Below are positions 6,086-57,903 of a stretch of 64,000 bases of DNA, one piece after another. This DNA is from a virus: the UHGV virus genome UHGV-0038498, one strand, 5' to 3'. Within the stretch, counting starts at the first letter, position 1, and every line of letters starts with the position of its first letter. The notes under the pieces were generated by a model. The model made no database searches. It saw only the letters and a list, made by a program, of their open reading frames with translations, and was not told where the DNA came from. The position numbers and the translations under genes are program-made.

Positions 6086-6877
6086 TTATACTCTTGCACC
6101 ATATATTGTACCAACTTTAGTCCAAGTTGGAGCATTACCAGTAACAGCTTTACCTGCTGCGCCACCCGAGTGAACAGTTCCTCCAGTACCACCTTGAATA
6201 TATGAAGATTTGCCCGCAGCCCCCAAATCTCCACCATCTCCTCCATGGTGAACCCCAGAAACAGTACCTTTACCAGGAGCAGAAATTGTAGCGGCAGATG
6301 CTGCCGATGCGCTGCCGCCTGCTGCACCCGCTGCACCAAATGGACGACCTCCGCCGCCACCAAATATCATATCCATTTGGGGGAAAGGATGATATCTAGC
6401 ACCAGCGCCGCCACCACCGCCACCACCGATAATACCATTATTGTTTATTCTTAAACGAGTTCCAATTCCGTTATTTATTGCAGTTCCTCCTGCTCCACCA
6501 GCAGAGTTACTTCCGCCATTTCCTCCTCGACCCAATACATGAACACCACTATTAATATTTAAGGTAACATATGCATTAGTTAATGAGCTAGGAAAATCTA
6601 AGCATGGTTGACCTGTCGATGAAGAAACGATATTGCCTGTAATTGTAATAACAACAGGAGTACTTCCTTGGGCTTTTATCCAATTTATTAGTGTGTCTTT
6701 ATTATAAGAATTGCTAGCACCAATGCTGTAATATACTTCTTTAGATTGTCCGGCCATTGAGCTCATCCAACCAGGAACTGAAACACGAACTGCTTTCATT
6801 GCAGCATCCATCCAACGTTGTCCAGTTTCATTCACGGCAGATTCACCAATCCAGCCAGGAACACCTACAATTGCCAT
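6086..6877 (-). CDS. 38: long tail fibre tip adhesin gp38 (T2-type, glycine-rich motifs)
   Basis: 263-aa ORF immediately downstream of gp37; conserved N-terminal gp37-attachment region followed by poly-Gly blocks (GGNGGSNSAGGAGG, GGGGGGGAG, GGGGG, GAAGAAGG) separated by variable segments. Confidence 0.85.
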   Translation of the reverse strand: MAIVGVPGWIGESAVNETGQRWMDAAMKAVRVSVPGWMSSMAGQSKEVYYSIGASNSYNKDTLINWIKAQGSTPVVITITGNIVSSSTGQPCLDFPSSLTNAYVTLNINSGVHVLGRGGNGGSNSAGGAGGTAINNGIGTRLRINNNGIIGGGGGGGAGARYHPFPQMDMIFGGGGGRPFGAAGAAGGSASAASAATISAPGKGTVSGVHHGGDGGDLGAAGKSSYIQGGTGGTVHSGGAAGKAVTGNAPTWTKVGTIYGARV

Positions 6878-6888
6878 TAAAAATCCTT

Positions 6889-6906
6889 AGAGGGCCGAAG
6901 CCCTCT
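6889..6906 (-). other. intercistronic RNA hairpin between genes 37 and 38
   Basis: Perfect 7-bp stem with 4-nt loop (UUCG on the transcribed strand), sitting just upstream of the gp38 AAGGA RBS. Confidence 0.5.
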
Positions 6907-6907
6907 T

Positions 6908-9900
6908 TTACATAAGTTTAGATTCAAGTTCTTTTACACGAGAAGAAAGTGTTTTCACAGCTTCAACCAGAAGAGCAATCTGGGCTTGAGAAGAAACAGT
7001 GAGTATTTTATTACCCTTGCTATCTTCTGTTTCATGGACAGCTTCTGGTAAAACGTCTTGCAACGTTTGAGCTATAATACCCGCTTCGGTTTGAACAGGT
7101 TCACCGCCTATATATTCAGCTTTGTCATAGATTAAACCATCAAGTTGCTCAACCCTTTCGAGCGCATTTTTAATAGGTTTAAAATTAGATTTCAAGCGAA
7201 CATCAGAACGAATATAAACGTTAGGAGCATTGACGTTTTTCTCGGAATAAACTTCACTTGAGGTGAATCTAACAACTTTAACGTTGTTCGCCCACGCTTC
7301 TAAAAGCCCATCGCCTACTTGTCTAAAACCAGTATCGCTATCACCAATTGCAATGGAGTTACCACCCCAACCGTTGGAGGTATTTACACCAAATGCTCTC
7401 GCAGATCCGCATGATAGTATAGGAGCATAAAATGTTCCATCCATGTCAAAAGTCCAACGAGCCTGTTGCCCCGATGGGTTGTCGCCACGCATGCGAATAA
7501 TACCTTGACGCCAAGTACCAGAAACACCTAACCATCCAAATTCAAATGATTGACGATAGCCCGCGTCAGTTAAAAAACTGTATCCAGAAAATAGCGGGTA
7601 ATAAGCTTGACTTGTCTTGGAAATGCCACCCGTATTCGCTAAGAATGCAGAATTGTCGCGAGTCACATTTGAAATAGCAGAAAAGCTAACACTCCATTGT
7701 CCGGCAGCTTTAACTCGTGAATTAATGTTTCCATTAATAGTAATATCTTTATCAAAAGAAGTATTTTCGCCAAGACGAACAGTACCAGCAGTCATATCGA
7801 TTGAAAACGGTCGTTTTCCATTCCAATCGCCTTCAGTTGCTTTATTATCGCCGTCTGAAGAGTTTTTGTCAGTCAGTAAAATATAGAAGTTTCCACCGTC
7901 ATTTCGAAATAAAACGGAATTAGAACCTGATCTATCAGAATTACTTGTAATACGAATACCAGTTTGGTTATTAATAGCAATTTCTGACTCTGCTACATAA
8001 CGCTTAGGCCCGTTAGGCGTTTTTTGCAAGTTATTCAATATACTTGCAACTTGACCTTGAATTGCCGTCTCAGGAAGTTCAACTGCAGTTTCTGTGGCGC
8101 CGGATGAATCTGAAGCAAATATTTGATTAACATTAGCGTTCGGTGTGGCATAATATGAAACAGCCAACGCCTGGGCGTATGTACCTACATTCACATAGAT
8201 ATCATAAACATCGCCTGATGTATTAACAGTGGCAACGTTTTTAATACCTTGAGCAACATCCAACGACCAAACAACAGCATTAATGCCTTTAGGATTGTTG
8301 TTAGAAGTTCTTAAAACAATTTGCGAAATAACACACTGGTGAGGAGTGGAAACATTATACCCGTTCCCGCCTGAAATTTCAAATTTAATAGTTGAGGTTG
8401 ATTGCGGCATTGTCACCGTTGCTAATTTGTACCAACCGCCAGTACCTGAATAAGAAACCATTCGGGTATTGACTTTACGATCTAATGTCGAGTTCAAGTT
8501 AGCAAAGTTAGGTAATGAACCACCCGTGATATTACCATCAGTACCAATACGAACATTACCAGCACCTAATTTACCAGGAGAGTAAAAATCACCGTTTTTA
8601 TTAAATTCCCAACCTAAATCCTTTATAATCGCGCCAGTAGAACCGCCATCACCACCTTCATGATAATGAACTCTAAAATTACCACCGTTAATTAAAGTAC
8701 CAATAGAATAGCAACTATTATTTTGTACGTATCTCTGTTTAACAATTGGAACATACGTACTTGTATCTGTGCGATTAATATTCATATAGAACGGAGCACG
8801 AACGTTTTCATTATTTTGTGAAGCAAATGAACCAGCCCCCGCAGGTCTAACAGCATCAGTACATTCTACATCGATGTACGACGACTGACCTAACTGCATA
8901 CGGTAATTAGGAGAAATACGACTATGACTAGTAACAACAACAAGTTTATTATCGTTGTCTACAGTAATCATATTGCCGCCTCTGCCGTCATCGCCTAACG
9001 TGACAGAATGACGCATTTGTACCATACCATTATTAAGACTAATACTTAATGGGCGGAGATTACTTATTCCACCACTTTCACCAGCATCTTTAGGAGTCGG
9101 GATAATATGTAATGATGCTTCTGAACGACGGAAAATAGCACCATATTCAGCATTCCAAATTCTTAATGCATCTGCTGTTCCACCAAATTTAGCTTGTCCG
9201 TTTACAGATAATCCATTATTAACATTTAAAGAAGATTCAGTTGTAATAGAACCAGAAGCAACAATACTGCCTGAAGTTAATAAACCACCATTAACTCGAA
9301 ATTGAATAGGTCCGACAGTAGAACCTGATCCGGGAGCAACTCGCTGAGAATAAAAATGGTAACCTTGCCCATCTGATACTTCAAAAACTGTTTCACGGGA
9401 ACGATCGCCAGATGCGTTAAATGAATTACCCCACGCTTTAACAGTTACATAGCTTTTATTCTGCCCAGCACGAGTACCACCTTCCCACAAAATTTGCTTA
9501 GTGCCATCAACCGTAGTAGTTGGAGCGAATGTTAGCCCAGCAGTAGAATTATTAGCTGCTAAATATACACCATTATATATTGAAAGCTGCTTAGTGGATG
9601 TAATACCGCCATCAGCATAAAACATTACATTATTTGCACCGGTTACTATTTTAAGAATACCCGGGTTAACTTCCATGCCTTCTTGGGTATTAATATTAGT
9701 TTTGCCTTTACCACGGAAATAGTGGTTCATTTTTCCGCCTGAGTTATAGCCAATATGTGTCTGGCCGTCTCCAGCAGTGTTTTCATCAGCCTGTGTTTGA
9801 ACTGATAAAAATGCAACATTCGTTCCAGGCATAGTCCATGTTGTACCTTGATCTTCTGAGCGACCAAATATACCTTTACGAGTACTACGGAAACTATCAG

Positions 9901-10891
9901 GCGTAATAGATGCAACGGAATAACCTCCACCAACTAAATCATAAACACCTTGTTTAATATATTTCAGACCAGTTACAGTGTCACCGAGAACAAGATACTT
10001 ATCACCCATTACCCCAGTATTTCCATAATCACTAGACGGGAAACCCGTAGTGAATGTACCTAATGCAAGGCTATTACGGCCAGCTATTCGGCCATCATTA
10101 CGAATACCATATTGTTTAGATTGAGGAGTATTACCAGTCCACCATGACATTTCATCAGCTTGTCCAGTCTGAGCTGTACAGATTTCATGCCACATGGTTC
10201 CGCCTGATTTAGCACGAACTTTACGAAGATAGTTTACTCCGTTAGTTTCACCGGTTCCAGGATAAACATACTGAACCAATGATTGTGAATCGTATTGTCC
10301 AAAGGCTTTAGAATCATGATTAATTAAATTAACACTAATAGTTGGTGTACTAATAGAAGTTAAAGCAGTTAACTTGCGTGCCTGGAAAATACCACCATCA
10401 GTAGAAATGAAATGAAATTCTGAATTTTGAGCCCCTGCTGCGGTTCCTTGACGAACACGCATTGTGATTACGCCTTCATTTTCAGACTGTGGTTTTGAAT
10501 ATAAAACACCTCTCTCCGATCCATCTGTATTTTCAAACCAAAGATGGGCATTGGAAGTATCATTTGTTGCTCTTGCGTAAAATGACCCTCGCATAGATCT
10601 GAAAACTTTTGCAGTTATGCCATCAGTAGAACCAATAGGTCCATTTACGGTCATTCCACCTGTTTGTACATAATCGCCATTTAACCTCAAAAGACCATTG
10701 ATAGTTACATTTCCATCAATTTGACCGCCTTTAGCAATACCTAGATCAATAATATTTCCTGAATCATCTTTAGTAAAAATTGTTCTATCTTTTAAGTTTA
10801 TAGCCAATTCACCTTCGGCTAATACTGAAGCAGCAGGACGTGCACCTGCGGTTTTGCTTCTTTTAAATTGTATTTGTTTTAAAGTAGCCAT
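6908..10891 (-). CDS. 37: long tail fibre distal subunit gp37 (with C-terminal intramolecular-chaperone-like domain)
   Basis: 1327-aa ORF, N-terminus [33 protein letters not shown]... typical of gp37; position between 36 and 38. Confidence 0.9.
6911..7207 (-). other. C-terminal ~99-aa intramolecular chaperone / autoproteolytic domain of gp37 (S74-like)
   Basis: SDVRLK motif followed by a helical C-terminal tail ending ...VKELESKLM, resembling self-cleaving tail-fibre chaperone domains. Confidence 0.5.
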
Positions 10892-16696: not shown

Positions 16697-16725
16697 AGAA
16701 ATCTCACTAATTGAACGAGGTTCAT

Positions 16726-17643
16726 ATGGATTTAGAAATGATGCTGGATGAAGATTACAAAGAAGGAATCTGCTTAATTGACTTTAGTCAAATTGCGCTT
16801 TCAACTGCTTTGGTAAACTTCCCAGATAAAGAAAAAATTAATTTATCAATGGTTCGTCATTTGATATTGAACTCAATTAAGTTTAATGTCAAAAAAGCAA
16901 AAACTCTTGGATACACTAAAATTGTACTGTGTATTGATAATGCGAAATCTGGATACTGGCGTCGTGATTTTGCTTATTATTATAAGAAAAACCGTGGAAA
17001 AGCACGAGAAGAATCTACTTGGGACTGGGAAGGTTATTTTGAATCCAGTCATAAAGTTATAGATGAATTGAAAGCTTATATGCCATACATTGTTATGGAT
17101 ATTGATAAGTATGAAGCAGATGACCATATTGCTGTTCTTGTTAAAAAGTTCTCTTTAGAAGGACATAAGATTTTAATCATTTCATCTGATGGTGACTTTA
17201 CTCAACTTCATAAATACCCAAATGTTAAGCAATGGTCACCGATGCACAAGAAATGGGTTAAAATTAAAAGCGGTTCTGCTGAAATTGACTGTATGACTAA
17301 AATCCTTAAAGGTGACAAAAAGGATAACGTTGCTTCAGTTAAAGTACGGTCTGACTTTTGGTTTACTAGAGTTGAAGGTGAACGAACTCCTTCAATGAAA
17401 ACCTCTATTGTCGAAGCTATTGCTAATGACCGCGAGCAAGCTAAGGTGCTTCTCACAGAATCTGAATATAATCGTTATAAAGAAAATTTAGTTCTAATTG
17501 ATTTTGATTATATTCCTGATAATATTGCTTCAAACATTGTGAATTACTATAATTCATATAAATTACCGCCGCGTGGCAAAATTTATTCATATTTTGTAAA
17601 AGCGGGACTTTCTAAATTAACTAATAGCATTAATGAATTTTGA
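16726..17643 (+). CDS. rnh: RNase H (5'-3' exonuclease, FEN family)
   Basis: ORF matching T4 RNase H from MDLEMMLDEDYKEGICLIDFSQIAL...; the track start at 16711 is a TTG, the ATG at 16726 fits the T4 N-terminus. Confidence 0.9.
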   Translation: MDLEMMLDEDYKEGICLIDFSQIALSTALVNFPDKEKINLSMVRHLILNSIKFNVKKAKTLGYTKIVLCIDNAKSGYWRRDFAYYYKKNRGKAREESTWDWEGYFESSHKVIDELKAYMPYIVMDIDKYEADDHIAVLVKKFSLEGHKILIISSDGDFTQLHKYPNVKQWSPMHKKWVKIKSGSAEIDCMTKILKGDKKDNVASVKVRSDFWFTRVEGERTPSMKTSIVEAIANDREQAKVLLTESEYNRYKENLVLIDFDYIPDNIASNIVNYYNSYKLPPRGKIYSYFVKAGLSKLTNSINEF

Positions 17644-17651
17644 GGTGAATA

Positions 17652-17921
17652 ATGGCTAAAAAAGAAATGGTTGAATTTGATGAAGCTATCCATGGCGAAG
17701 ACTTGGCTAAATTTATCAAAGAAGCATCTGATCATAAACTGAAAATTTCCGGTTATAATGAATTGATTAAAGACATTCGAATTCGTGCCAAAGATGAACT
17801 TGGTGTTGATGGCAAGATGTTTAATCGTCTATTAGCTTTGTATCATAAAGATAACCGTGATGTGTTTGAAGCTGAAACTGAAGAGGTAGTTGAACTTTAT
17901 GACACAGTTTTCTCTAAATGA
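17652..17921 (+). CDS. dsbA: dsDNA-binding protein DsbA
   Basis: 89-aa ORF MAKKEMVEFDEAIHGEDLAKFIKEASDHKLK... matching T4 DsbA as recalled. Confidence 0.85.
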   Translation: MAKKEMVEFDEAIHGEDLAKFIKEASDHKLKISGYNELIKDIRIRAKDELGVDGKMFNRLLALYHKDNRDVFEAETEEVVELYDTVFSK

Positions 17922-32570: not shown

Positions 32571-32763
32571 CATAGAAAAGATTTATCAACTTTGTGATAA
32601 AATTGAAAAAGAAAAGAAATATCTATTTTGTTTATGGCCTATTGTTGATGGAAGAGTAGGCTTAGATGTTCTTGATTATGAAACAGAAGACAGAGTAGAT
32701 GGTTCAACTTTTGATAATGCGTTGGATGTTATTGATTGGCTTGAAGAAAATTATGTGAGGTAA
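32563..32763 (+). CDS. hypothetical protein
   Basis: 66-aa acidic ORF. Confidence 0.45.
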
Positions 32764-33043: not shown

Positions 33044-33073
33044 GTTTACTTTACGGTAGAGTTGTGATATTAT
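33044..33073 (+). promoter_or_regulatory. early promoter with inverted repeat around the -10
   Basis: GTTTAC at 33044-33049, TATTAT at 33068-33073; arms GGTAGAG (33055-33061) and CTCTACC (33076-33082). Confidence 0.55.
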
Positions 33074-33103: not shown

Positions 33104-33634
33104 ATGAGCGAATGGTTTGAAGAAGATAAGGTTTATCGCTTTAAAGCTGGGTATAAAGATATTTTTAATGAAACATGCGGGGCTAATAAACGAATTGCTC
33201 AATTTATTGGGGAAAATTCATTTAAAGTAAAAATAGATCCTGCGAAAAATGTTATTAGCATTAAACGCGAAATTGATGACTGTTGGTATAAAGCTGTTGA
33301 TGTAATGGGCGAATCCTATAAAGTTAGCCCGTTATTTTCAATTGCTTATATGTTAGAATATTCTTTTTTCGAAGAAGTTCAAAAAGATGATTCTGTCAGT
33401 AAATTTGAAATTAAAACTGATAAAGAAATTAAGTGGAAAGTAGTAGGTATTACCGGTGGTTGCATGTTTTATATCTATGCTCAAACTGATACGAAGGAAG
33501 AAGCTAAAAAGAAAGCTCTAGAATATCTTGAAGAGTATGAAGAAGGCCCGGTAATGATTACCCAAGATGCCGAATTAGTTTCTGTCAAATTAGTTAAAAA
33601 CGTTGAAAGTAAGGAGCTGGGATCAACATGCTAA
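33104..33634 (+). CDS. hypothetical protein
   Basis: 176-aa ORF with GAGGAAAT RBS. Confidence 0.55.
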   Translation: MSEWFEEDKVYRFKAGYKDIFNETCGANKRIAQFIGENSFKVKIDPAKNVISIKREIDDCWYKAVDVMGESYKVSPLFSIAYMLEYSFFEEVQKDDSVSKFEIKTDKEIKWKVVGITGGCMFYIYAQTDTKEEAKKKALEYLEEYEEGPVMITQDAELVSVKLVKNVESKELGSTC

Positions 33635-33863
33635 GTGAAAACCAATTACTGTTAAAGAATTCCAAGAAAAAGTTAAACTATTTGCTCAGGAATTGGTAAA
33701 TAAGGTTTCTGAACGATTTCCAGAAACATCGGTTCGTGTTATTACCGAAACTCCTCGTTCAGTATTAGTAATTGTGAATCCAGGTGATGGTGACCAAATA
33801 ACACATCTCAAATTGGATTTTGATGGATTAGTTGAAGCACAAAGGGTGTATGGCGTACTATGA
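33628..33863 (+). pseudogene. small gene disrupted by a frameshift at an A-run (or expressed by slippage)
   Basis: ATG 33628 with AAGGAG RBS opens a 23-codon frame; a protein-like 74-codon frame (33639-33863) has no ATG; one extra A in the A4 run at 33638-33641 would fuse them. Confidence 0.4.
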
Positions 33864-43223: not shown

Positions 43224-45281
43224 ATGGAACTTATTACAGAATTATTTGACGGCGCTTCGGCGCCGGTTGTTAACTTAAATCCTAAGCATAAAATACCTCA
43301 AATTTTTGCTATTCAAGCCGGCGAAGAAAGTGTGCTTCCTGGATTTAGATTTTGTACATACACCTCTGGCGGTGATACAAATAAAAACGTTAAGCCAGGC
43401 GATAAAATGATGCATATCGTAATGATAGGTGTTAATGAGAAACTATCATTAGTTAAACTTAAAAACTTGGGTGGAAATCCAATTGGTGTCATTAATGCCG
43501 TTTTTGATACTGCTCTTCAAACAATGAAACAGTATAAAATTGACGCATGCTTATTCCGCGTACTAAAAAGTAAAACAAATGGCGCAGCTCGTCAAATGCA
43601 AGTTATTGCTGACCGTTTAGTACGTACTAAAGGAGCAGGTCGATATGTTCTTTTAAAGGAAATCTGGGATTATGATAAAAAGTATGCATATATTATGGTT
43701 TACCGTAAAAATGCCAATTTAGAAGACATTCCAGGTGTACCTCCTATTTCAACTGAGTTATTCACAAAAGTTGAATCAAAGGTTGGTGATGTGTATGTAG
43801 ATGTTAAAACAGGTAATGCTGTTCCTAAAGCTGTTGCTGTTGCTGCTTCTATTGCCTTAGAAAATGATAAGCGCACGGATCAAGCTGTTATTCAGAAAAC
43901 TAAAATTAGTCGTCGATTAGCAGCGCAAGCTCAATATTCTACTGTCGATGCTTCACTACAGAGTGATAGCTTCGCTGCCAAGAAATATCAAGAGTTTGAA
44001 TCTAAAGTTCCGGTACATAAAGCAGAAGGACCAATGAACTCTGGCGTTATTCAGATTGGTTCAAACTTCGGCAAAGGAGCTATCGGTGGTATGAGAAGTG
44101 CTTCTCGTTTTAAATCTAACGATTATGAACTAGAAAGCTTCCGAAATCATATTGCATTGGCCCATGCACGTTTACGTGATCCATCTATCAAGCTGCAGAG
44201 CGATATAACATATCAAGGTTCTCAAGAATATTTAAAGAATAAAGAATTTTTTGATTATAAAACCGATAAAATTTTGAGCGATCTCGCTGACATTAATATT
44301 TCTAATAGCTTTGATGTTATTAAGAAAATTATCAATGATTTAGTTAAAGGTTCTAAAGCTACGCCAGACGAAAAGGTAGCTATTATTCAATTTGTCATGA
44401 ATGGCATTTATAAATTGATTAATGAATCTGCTGCCCAGGCGTATGAATACGCAAGCACCGAAGTAACTCCAAAAGGACTGACTCAGGCTGAGTCTGATGT
44501 AATTGAAGATTATTGTGCAGATTCATATGTTGAAATGAACTCGTTCCTCTTGGGTAAACCAGATTCTACCCGTGAAGAATACATGGAACGAGCTATTAAA
44601 CACATCGAGACAATGGATTCTGCCTTTGCCAAAGGTTCAGTTCTTCCTCCAGGAACTACGCTTTATCGTGGACAAGAAGTTACTTTTAAAACTTTACGCC
44701 ATAATATTGAAAATAAAATGTTCTATTTCAAGAACTTCGTATCAACATCGCTTAAACCAAATATCTTCGGTGAGCATGGTAAAAACTATATGGCTCTAGA
44801 TGATTCCGGCGCAGTATTTTCTGGTGAAGGAGAAGGTTCTGTTGATGCTGAAGATTTAATGCATATGGGTAGTCATTCTGCTTATGCGAATGAAGATGCT
44901 GAAACTAGCGTAGGTATGGTAATTAAAGGGGCTGAGCGAATCAAAGTTATCGTTCCAGGTCATTTATCAGGATTTCCATCAGAAGCTGAAGTTATTCTAC
45001 CGCGTGGAATTTTGTTGAAGATTAATAAAGTAAGCACGTACATGATGAAAGAAACTGCTTATAACAAGTATCTAATCGAAGGCACAATCGTTCCTCCTTC
45101 TGAACAATTAGAAGAATCGGTATATGATGGCGATCATCTAATGGAAACTGGTGAAGTTCGTCCAATGGCTGGGTTTAATCAATTCCTTGTAGAAGAATCA
45201 AAAGAAGAGGAAAACGAAGTTTCTCAAATCTTGGCTTCTTTGGTTAACATCAACGGAATGTCTAAAAAGTTCAAGATGTAG
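43224..45281 (+). CDS. second Alt-family ADP-ribosyltransferase paralogue
   Basis: 685-aa ORF 3 nt downstream of alt; N-terminal ~230 aa collinear with alt, catalytic motifs TLYRGQ / FVSTSL / EAEVILPRG retained, central region divergent. Confidence 0.8.
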   Translation: MELITELFDGASAPVVNLNPKHKIPQIFAIQAGEESVLPGFRFCTYTSGGDTNKNVKPGDKMMHIVMIGVNEKLSLVKLKNLGGNPIGVINAVFDTALQTMKQYKIDACLFRVLKSKTNGAARQMQVIADRLVRTKGAGRYVLLKEIWDYDKKYAYIMVYRKNANLEDIPGVPPISTELFTKVESKVGDVYVDVKTGNAVPKAVAVAASIALENDKRTDQAVIQKTKISRRLAAQAQYSTVDASLQSDSFAAKKYQEFESKVPVHKAEGPMNSGVIQIGSNFGKGAIGGMRSASRFKSNDYELESFRNHIALAHARLRDPSIKLQSDITYQGSQEYLKNKEFFDYKTDKILSDLADINISNSFDVIKKIINDLVKGSKATPDEKVAIIQFVMNGIYKLINESAAQAYEYASTEVTPKGLTQAESDVIEDYCADSYVEMNSFLLGKPDSTREEYMERAIKHIETMDSAFAKGSVLPPGTTLYRGQEVTFKTLRHNIENKMFYFKNFVSTSLKPNIFGEHGKNYMALDDSGAVFSGEGEGSVDAEDLMHMGSHSAYANEDAETSVGMVIKGAERIKVIVPGHLSGFPSEAEVILPRGILLKINKVSTYMMKETAYNKYLIEGTIVPPSEQLEESVYDGDHLMETGEVRPMAGFNQFLVEESKEEENEVSQILASLVNINGMSKKFKM

Positions 45282-57054: not shown

Positions 57055-57903
57055 ATGGCTTTTACAGTTGATATAACTCCTAAAACACCTACTGGAGTTA
57101 TAGATCAGACTCAGCAGTTTACTGCTACACCCAGTGGTCAAACTGGAGATGGACCTATTACATATGCCTGGACTGTAGACGACGCTCCACAGGAAGAAAC
57201 GTCAGCAACTTTTAGTTATGTACTAAAAGGACCTGCCGGTCAAAAAACTATTAAAGTAGTTGCAACAAACCCAGTTCCAGAAGCTGAAGCTGAAACAGCT
57301 ACAGTTACTACAACTATTACAGTTCAAAATAAGACACAGACGACTACATTAGCCGTAACTCCTGCTACTCCTCCGGAAGGAGTAATCGGAACAGCCGTTG
57401 AATTTACCGCTGCCTTAGCTTCACAGCCACCAAGTGCATCTGCTACATATCAATGGTACGTTGACGGTTCTCCTGTTAGTGAAGCAACTTCTGCTACATT
57501 CAATTACACTCCTTCGACAAGCGGAGTTAAAACAATTAAGTGTGTAGCTCAAGTAACTGCGGCAGATTATGATAGCAAAACTATCACAGCAGAAGGTCAA
57601 GTTCAGGTAACTGATAAAGTTGCTCCAGAACCAGAAGGTGAATTGCCTTATGTTCATCCTCTTCCACATCGTACTTCAGCTTATATCTGGTGCGGTTGGT
57701 GGGTTATGGATGAAATCCAAAAAATGACTGAAGAAGGTAAAGATTGGAAAACTGACGACCCAGATAGTAAGTACTACTTGCATCGTTACACTCTTCAGAA
57801 GATGATGAAAGACTATCCAGAAGTTGATGTTCAAGAATCACGTAATGGATACATCATTCATAAAACTGCTTTAGAAACTGGTATCATCTATACCTATCCA
57901 TAA
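57055..57903 (+). CDS. hoc: outer capsid decoration protein Hoc (short, two Ig-like repeats)
   Basis: 282-aa ORF; two ~90-aa Thr/Ser-rich Ig-like repeats (ITYAWTVDDAPQEETSATFSYV / ATYQWYVDGSPVSEATSATFNYT) plus conserved C-terminal capsid-binding region. Confidence 0.75.
   Translation: MAFTVDITPKTPTGVIDQTQQFTATPSGQTGDGPITYAWTVDDAPQEETSATFSYVLKGPAGQKTIKVVATNPVPEAEAETATVTTTITVQNKTQTTTLAVTPATPPEGVIGTAVEFTAALASQPPSASATYQWYVDGSPVSEATSATFNYTPSTSGVKTIKCVAQVTAADYDSKTITAEGQVQVTDKVAPEPEGELPYVHPLPHRTSAYIWCGWWVMDEIQKMTEEGKDWKTDDPDSKYYLHRYTLQKMMKDYPEVDVQESRNGYIIHKTALETGIIYTYP

Follow-up and report, generated by a model that had tools for sequence, protein, structure and literature searches.

A one-base frameshift near the start of the early gene cd.2 in a T4-like phage is probably a recent loss-of-function allele

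Results

A cd.2 gene with one A missing

The window, a 64,000-nucleotide stretch of virus genome UHGV-0038498, carries a copy of the T4 early gene cd.2 in which a run of five A residues (A5) has been reduced to four (A4), so that the start codon is out of frame with the body of the gene. The most likely reading is that a homopolymer hot spot has recently undergone a genuine frameshift, with loss of function of an accessory gene that the phage can dispense with. The base appears to be missing in the phage DNA itself and not just in the assembly. The original prediction had offered three options for the locus, namely a frameshift in a genuine gene, a sequencing error or expression that depends on slippage. 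The first was supported, as the gene is intact and constrained in relatives, where the run is A5; sequencing error is the less likely account, and expression by slippage found no support.

The layout that had been read from the letters alone was confirmed in the sequence. An ATG at 33628, 11 nt after AAGGAG (33611-33616), opens a frame of 23 codons (MLSENQLLLKNSKKKLNYLLRNW) that ends in a TAA at 33697-33699. A second frame, from 33639 (directly after an in-frame TGA, 33636-33638), is open to a TGA at 33861-33863. This frame begins and ends KPITVKEFQEK...RVYGVL (KPITVKEFQEKVKLFAQELVNKVSERFPETSVRVITETPRSVLVIVNPGDGDQITHLKLDFDGLVEAQRVYGVL in full), and its stop overlaps the next ATG (33860) as ATGA. 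Four As make up the run at 33638-33641; the addition of one more joins the two frames into a single 78-aa ORF. As written, the window has no uninterrupted ORF from the MLSE start, because A4 puts that start out of frame with residues 5-78. The features of the locus are collected in Table 1.

Table 1. Features at and around the cd.2 locus (window coordinates).
Feature	Position	Strand	Remarks
Sigma-70-like promoter match, TTTACT-17-TATTAT with TG	33045..33073	+	Pattern scan; upstream of the 176-aa gene
176-aa RB32ORF214c-like gene, phrog_3710	33104..33634	+	Sequence, homology
Shine-Dalgarno (SD) AAGGAG of cd.2	33611..33616	+	11 nt before the ATG; same layout in relatives with intact cd.2
cd.2 start and 23-codon out-of-frame stub	33628..33699	+	Only the first four residues (MLSE) are native
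A4 run, site of the 1-nt deletion	33638..33641	+	A5 in relatives, codons GAA AAA = Glu4 Lys5
cd.2 body, residues 5-78 and stop	33639..33863	+	Out of frame with the start; protein 100% identical to ime09 Cd.2
G_AAA_AAG in the stub frame	33666..33672	+	Sole motif where a -1 slip could rejoin the cd.2 frame
TTG-initiated 56-aa ORF	33693..33863	+	Predicted; open to the native stop; exactly the same ORF is annotated in HY03
cd.1, 112 aa	33860..34198	+	ATGA overlap with cd.2

The repaired ORF encodes a conserved T4 early protein

The downstream frame had been thought to read like a genuine protein, and this was upheld. The repaired protein matched Pfam PF24005 (DUF7320) at 117.1 bits (cut-off 27; E 3.4e-34) over residues 1-77 of 78, and phrog_1504 at E 4e-40. 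In a large protein collection it was letter for letter the commonest Cd.2 allele, found on 768 contigs. Since the repaired protein is both a full-length DUF7320 and identical to the 768-contig protein, the match is far beyond chance. The locus is therefore the same gene as T4 cd.2 (Cd.2, PF24005 DUF7320, phrog_1504), at the same position in the early cluster. Unlike the T4 cd.2 family, however, the ORF in the window is broken at codon 5 by a 1-nt deletion and is not an intact member as written.

The Cd.2 family comprises 28 clusters at 90% identity, and all of its named members come from T4-like phages. Pairwise dN/dS for cd.2 was 0.03-0.17, with a median of 0.13 (108 pairs), and the family is under purifying selection. 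At the N-terminus, MLSExPIT, the residues M-L-S-E are nearly invariant and P-I-T are invariant even among members that share as little as 62% identity, which marks the ATG frame as the functional frame of the ancestor. An AlphaFold2 model was confident (pLDDT 90.5); in it, a single long helix (residues 5-26 of the 74-aa query) precedes four strands. A literature search on cd.2 returned nothing relevant.

Comparison with orthologous loci, which had been proposed as a check, confirmed the missing base: the first four relatives fetched read GTGAAAAACC (A5), where the window reads GTGAAAACC (A4). When a 111-nt junction segment was searched, all of the records listed (60/60) spanned 112 nt, and there were no ungapped matches. 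Apart from the A4 phages HY03 and BYEP01, described below, the relatives that were inspected or listed have A5 and an intact ORF of 78-79 aa. Between the repaired cd.2 and its closest A5 relatives there are 0-3 substitutions, almost all of them synonymous, which suggests that the lesion is either very recent or an artefact.

Genome and gene order

The window belongs to a Tequatrovirus (T4-like phage). Over 20 kb, phage ime09 was the closest match, at 97.4% identity, and no identical record was found. Most of the other window proteins are 98-100% identical to those of ime09, whereas gp37 and gp38 (long tail fibre tip; 69% and 72% identity) and hoc (60% identity over a partial match) are strongly diverged (window 6089-10891 and 57064-57900); these three are the usual host-range and decoration mosaic modules. 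The window has no counterpart of ime09 gp242 or of the 57-aa ORF beside ac.

The local gene order is pseT, cd.5, cd.4, cd.3, the 176-aa RB32ORF214c-like gene, cd.2, cd.1, cd (dCMP deaminase), 31.2, 31.1 and 31. The position of cd.2, between cd.3 (or ORF214c) and cd.1/cd, is the same in ime09, UGKSEcP1, pSs-1 and T4. In ime09, UGKSEcP1 and pSs-1 the counterpart is an intact 237-bp CDS, which is called cd.2 in ime09.

The RB32ORF214c-like gene is present between cd.3 and cd.2 in about 300 of 498 related records and is thus a presence/absence polymorphism. T4, HY03, BYEP01 and BYEP02 are without it and have an intergenic region in its place, which in T4 holds an annotated early promoter. In the window, the TAA of this gene (33632-33634) overlaps the cd.2 start as ATGCTAA, and an overlap of its stop with the cd.2 ATG is seen wherever the gene is present. 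The gene, phrog_3710, also gave a weak match to the goF mRNA-metabolism-modulator PHROG (E 0.003). Both T4 and GiZh have an early promoter (Pe133295) annotated between cd.3 and cd.2, and the sigma-70-like match of the window (33045..33073) is found at the corresponding position, where it is a putative early promoter.

The same A4 allele is present in HY03 and BYEP01

To search for the allele itself, we used a 50-nt query with 23-nt flanks, such that every megablast seed was forced across the A4 run. Only three records were retrieved, representing two phages, HY03 (KR269718/NC_031047) and BYEP01 (OR757453). The A4 allele of cd.2 is thus already in public records, where it has gone unremarked. 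Both phages resemble the window in their junction (ATGCTAAGTGAAAACCAATT), in the 23-codon stub and in the intact downstream frame. They differ from it in that the 176-aa gene is absent, so that their cd.2 follows the intergenic promoter region and has a different SD. BYEP01 was sequenced on the Illumina NovaSeq platform (PE150) and assembled with SPAdes (PMC12951479). Illumina chemistry is not prone to indels at runs of five, and the BYEP01 record therefore shows that the A4 allele exists in nature.

No difference separates the window from BYEP01 between the cd.2 start codon (33628) and 33927. The same 286-bp haplotype also occurs, at 100% identity, in 15 further records, none of which was retrieved by the A4-specific search; the deletion may therefore equally well have arisen afresh on a common background as have been inherited from a shared ancestor. 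Inheritance would also require recombination in the 10-nt interval from the ORF214c boundary to the run, or else that ORF214c was gained or lost in an A4 lineage. With an A6 query, whose left flank was too long for allele specificity, an exact A6 match was found in no record. Scans of IMG/VR and the JGI metagenomes with an A4 30-mer gave 0 matches, and the A5 pattern itself gave just 2 and 3 matches there.

A real allele or an error of sequencing

The likeliest rival account of the lesion is an error of sequencing or assembly, in which the phage DNA would still have A5, with cd.2 intact, and one A would have dropped out during base-calling or consensus polishing. Repair yields exactly the commonest allele and the remaining ORF is undamaged, as an artefact would look, and homopolymers are the typical place for indel errors. 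Probable single-base errors are also present in other records (the extra G in cd.2 of the T4 reference and the split of ime09 rnh at an A-run, both described below), and one uncorrected indel in 64 kb fits an otherwise clean assembly.

Against this, a tblastn search of about 95 ime09 proteins against the window showed cd.2 to be the only frameshifted gene; scattered homopolymer frameshifts elsewhere in the same assembly were not found among these proteins. The two discrepancies at other runs (window 16833 in rnh and 32706 in cd.4) are disruptions in ime09, and the window is intact at both. A/T runs in the window number 321 of length 5, 65 of length 6 and 4 of length 7, and the 69 of at least 6 nt would be expected to fail before a run of 5.

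As a control, the -1 change was simulated at 112 other exact coding 5-runs whose flanks are conserved in ime09. An unspaced composite of the segments proved invalid, as 27-mers gained a chance base from the adjoining segment and seeded on wild-type genomes. The N-spaced version was noisy, in that variants with a substitution at the run edge (e.g. A5 -> A4G) align with a gap; these were recognised by the wild-type span of the record. Five affected or known segments were dropped, which left 107 sites. In this clean run, matches at gp51 and nrdA were of wild-type length and so were not -1 alleles, and the match at gp22 was a gapped alignment over two overlapping segments and likewise not a -1 allele. 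At none of these 107 control 5-runs was a true -1 allele found in about 500 deposited genomes, a number that is effectively below 500 per site since the 28-mer seed needs conserved flanks, and one that is to be read with the caveat that submitters may correct frameshifts sooner in well-known genes than in small hypothetical ones. In the clean control run, the cd.2 segment again retrieved HY03 and BYEP01, with ungapped spans.

The -1 allele at the cd.2 run amounts to about 0.4% of genomes. Because -1 calls at 5-runs are otherwise very rare, this frequency suggests that a real allele is much likelier than an error in the window. The identical A4 allele in two independent genomes, one of them sequenced by Illumina, points the same way. 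On balance we consider an error unlikely, and a genuine deletion in the phage the better supported reading.

A heritable homopolymer allele of this kind has a precedent in the same phage group. Across all 112 control 5-runs there was one true -1 allele, at an A5 run inside an Alt paralogue, which produces the alt.-2 split. In the window this A5 (43383-43387) is found within a 685-aa Alt paralogue (43224-45278), which is one uninterrupted long ORF both here and in ime09. T4, T4T, RB55, RB59, ESh30, ESh36 and others have A4 at this site, and the T4-lineage records listed show the -1 span. The T4 reference and T4T annotate alt.-1 and alt.-2 there, and the split is reproduced in all of the re-sequenced T4 genomes listed. 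The alt.-1/alt.-2 pair is clearly a heritable -1 homopolymer allele. Homopolymer frameshifts of the Streisinger type, at the rII hot spots of T4, are the textbook comparison. Both cases are like cd.2 in that a single base is lost in a short A-run and a non-essential gene is inactivated. The alt split differs in its age and in its fixation within a lineage, the cd.2 lesion being recent and sporadic.

Recoding is highly improbable

Slippage-dependent expression, as raised in the original prediction, would mean that Cd.2 is made from the A4 template, either because ribosomes shift by -1 in a programmed manner (e.g. at G_AAA_AAG, 33666-33672) or because RNA polymerase slips on the A-run. The claim was not supported, in view of a run of 4 nt that is not conserved, the lack of a slippery heptamer and the lack of a standout RNA structure. 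The A4 allele does recur in three genomes, and AAA_AAG is a shift-prone pair of lysine codons in E. coli, as at dnaX-type sites. Programmed -1 sites, such as A_AAA_AAG of dnaX and the G/GT site of the tail chaperone, share with the present locus an A-rich sequence near the frame change, with a G_AAA_AAG motif 28 nt downstream. Unlike those sites, cd.2 has no conserved two-frame layout, is without a stimulatory element and has no canonical heptamer where the frame changes, and its relatives are in frame.

Cd.2 is encoded in one frame in hundreds of related records, and 19 of 19 IMG/VR cd.2 loci begin in a single frame at the 5' end. A two-frame arrangement in relatives was confined to the A4 junction of the three HY03 and BYEP01 records, the relatives inspected or listed being A5. 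Residue 5 is K, Q, N or T in the family, with CAA, AAC or ACC codons in diverged homologues, and the A-run is therefore not conserved.

The junction itself, U_GAA_AAC, is not an X_XXY_YYZ slippery heptamer. The nearest near-match is the G_AAA_AAG, which is non-canonical in the P site and appears incidental, as it consists of the wild-type Q-E-K-V codons read in another frame. No SD-like motif was found in the sequence upstream of this heptamer, and folding compared with shuffled sequences gave no excess structure (z -0.93 for 33673-33760 and z +1.37 for 33600-33720). Spontaneous -1 slips at G_AAA_AAG are conceivable at a low level, but a recoded product would carry 13 foreign N-terminal residues instead of the conserved motif.

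Tracts that support transcriptional slippage or phase variation are typically homopolymers of 7-9 nt or more. A4 is far shorter than the tracts that support slippage of RNA polymerase, and there is no long conserved homopolymer at this site (4 nt here, 5 in relatives). Recoding is thus highly improbable, and the loss-of-function frameshift remains our preferred explanation. For annotation, we suggest that the locus be labelled as a frameshifted cd.2 (DUF7320), and not as a 23-aa or 56-aa 'hypothetical protein' or as a recoding candidate.

Predicted consequences of the lesion

In the wild type, ribosomes would load at the AAGGAG/ATG (33628), make the 78-aa Cd.2, predicted to be an N-terminal helix packed on a four-stranded sheet, and pass to cd.1 via the ATGA. 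The one-base deletion in codons 4-5, from A5 to A4, would have arisen by classic replication slippage at a short homopolymer. Ribosomes would then stop after 23 codons, so that full-length Cd.2 would not be made. What remained would at most be traces of protein made when ribosomes slip by -1 spontaneously, or a 56-aa fragment without the helix, reinitiated at TTG 33693. The A4 allele thus appears to be null and cd.2 to be dispensable. The phage would tolerate the lesion owing to the accessory nature of this early gene, and knock-outs of cd.2, by this lesion or by others, are present in several related phages. The absence of any further accumulated damage suggests that the lesion is very recent.

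A partly functional allele would result if ribosomes ending at the TAA (33697) reinitiated at TTG 33693 to make a 56-aa truncated Cd.2 with some activity. The TTG would be reachable by reinitiation because the stub stops only 4 nt later; its ORF is open to the native stop, and gene callers chose this 56-aa ORF in HY03. In the BYEP01 annotation, however, nothing is called there, and the TTG is preceded only by a poorly spaced AGGA, at 2 nt. The product would also be without 14 of the 22 residues of the single sheet-packing helix and without the conserved N-terminal motif, and would therefore probably be unstable. We regard such a hypomorph as very unlikely, and favour a null allele.

The lesion may also affect the next gene. 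The cd.2/cd.1 and cd.1/cd pairs are both joined by ATGA, and upstream of cd.1 there is only a weak, distant purine-rich stretch. The loss of cd.2 translation may therefore lower the expression of cd.1, through a loss of ribosome flow from upstream (polarity).

Other lesions of cd.2 in related phages

Independent disruptions of cd.2, of other kinds, were found in other genomes. BYEP02 has a 77-nt out-of-frame tandem duplication within cd.2, in which CAAGAAAAAG...CGTGT occurs twice. In a 167-kb metagenome scaffold (ENA YOKO23-1 scaffold_14, 1501-1662), an extra T at about codon 46 changes GTATTAG to GTATTTAG. In IMGVR_UViG_2974741249_000001 (589-800), a more distant T4-like genome, a deletion fuses cd.2 at about residue 64 to the interior of cd.1 and removes the cd.2/cd.1 junction. 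Genuinely truncated clusters numbered 3 of 28 for cd.2 and 1 of 10 for cd.3; cd.2 is disrupted at least as often as cd.3, with numbers too small to claim an excess. The lesion in the window adds a small data point for cd.2 as a dispensable gene that natural T4-like phages have repeatedly lost by knock-out.

E. coli BYEC05 (pig farm, China) was the isolation host of both BYEP01 (A5 -> A4) and BYEP02 (77-nt duplication), two different phages whose knock-outs of cd.2 are not the same. This pattern could reflect host-specific selection against Cd.2, or chance. A broader proposal is that loss of cd.2 is not neutral but is favoured time and again on certain hosts, for instance if a host defence senses Cd.2 or if Cd.2 makes the phage sensitive to one, with the A5 run acting as a mutational switch. 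The hint for it is this pair of knock-outs on one host strain, set against cd.2 lesions of any kind in only a handful of about 500 related genomes; we hold the proposal to be speculative and distinctly unlikely. If the host-specific pattern were true, it could give a first handle on the function of Cd.2, an uncharacterised T4 early protein.

Single-base differences in reference records

In the T4 reference NC_000866.4, cd.2 (17532-17800, corresponding to window 33628-33670) is given as 231 bp from a GTG, encoding 76 aa that begin VKNRLLLKEFQ. The GTG is annotated because an extra G (AAAGGAATTCC) closes the SD-proximal ATG frame after 17 codons. In an allele-specific search this G was found only in AF158101/NC_000866 and was absent from 11 re-sequenced T4/T4T genomes, RB55 and RB59. 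We had considered it as a natural class of cd.2 allele and rejected it on the grounds that it is private to AF158101/NC_000866; it is therefore most likely a reference error or a private change. T4 Cd.2 is thus likely to have 79 aa, starting MLLSEKPITVKEFQ, and the annotation in the reference is likely to be an error.

Two differences of one nucleotide were also noted in ime09. Its rnh has one A fewer at window position 16833 and is split into two CDSs (264 aa and 45 aa), which probably reflects an error or a mutation on the ime09 side; the window rnh (16711-17643) is one intact RNase H ORF. In ime09 cd.4 there is a 1-nt indel at window position 32706, where the window matches the other relatives (66 aa).
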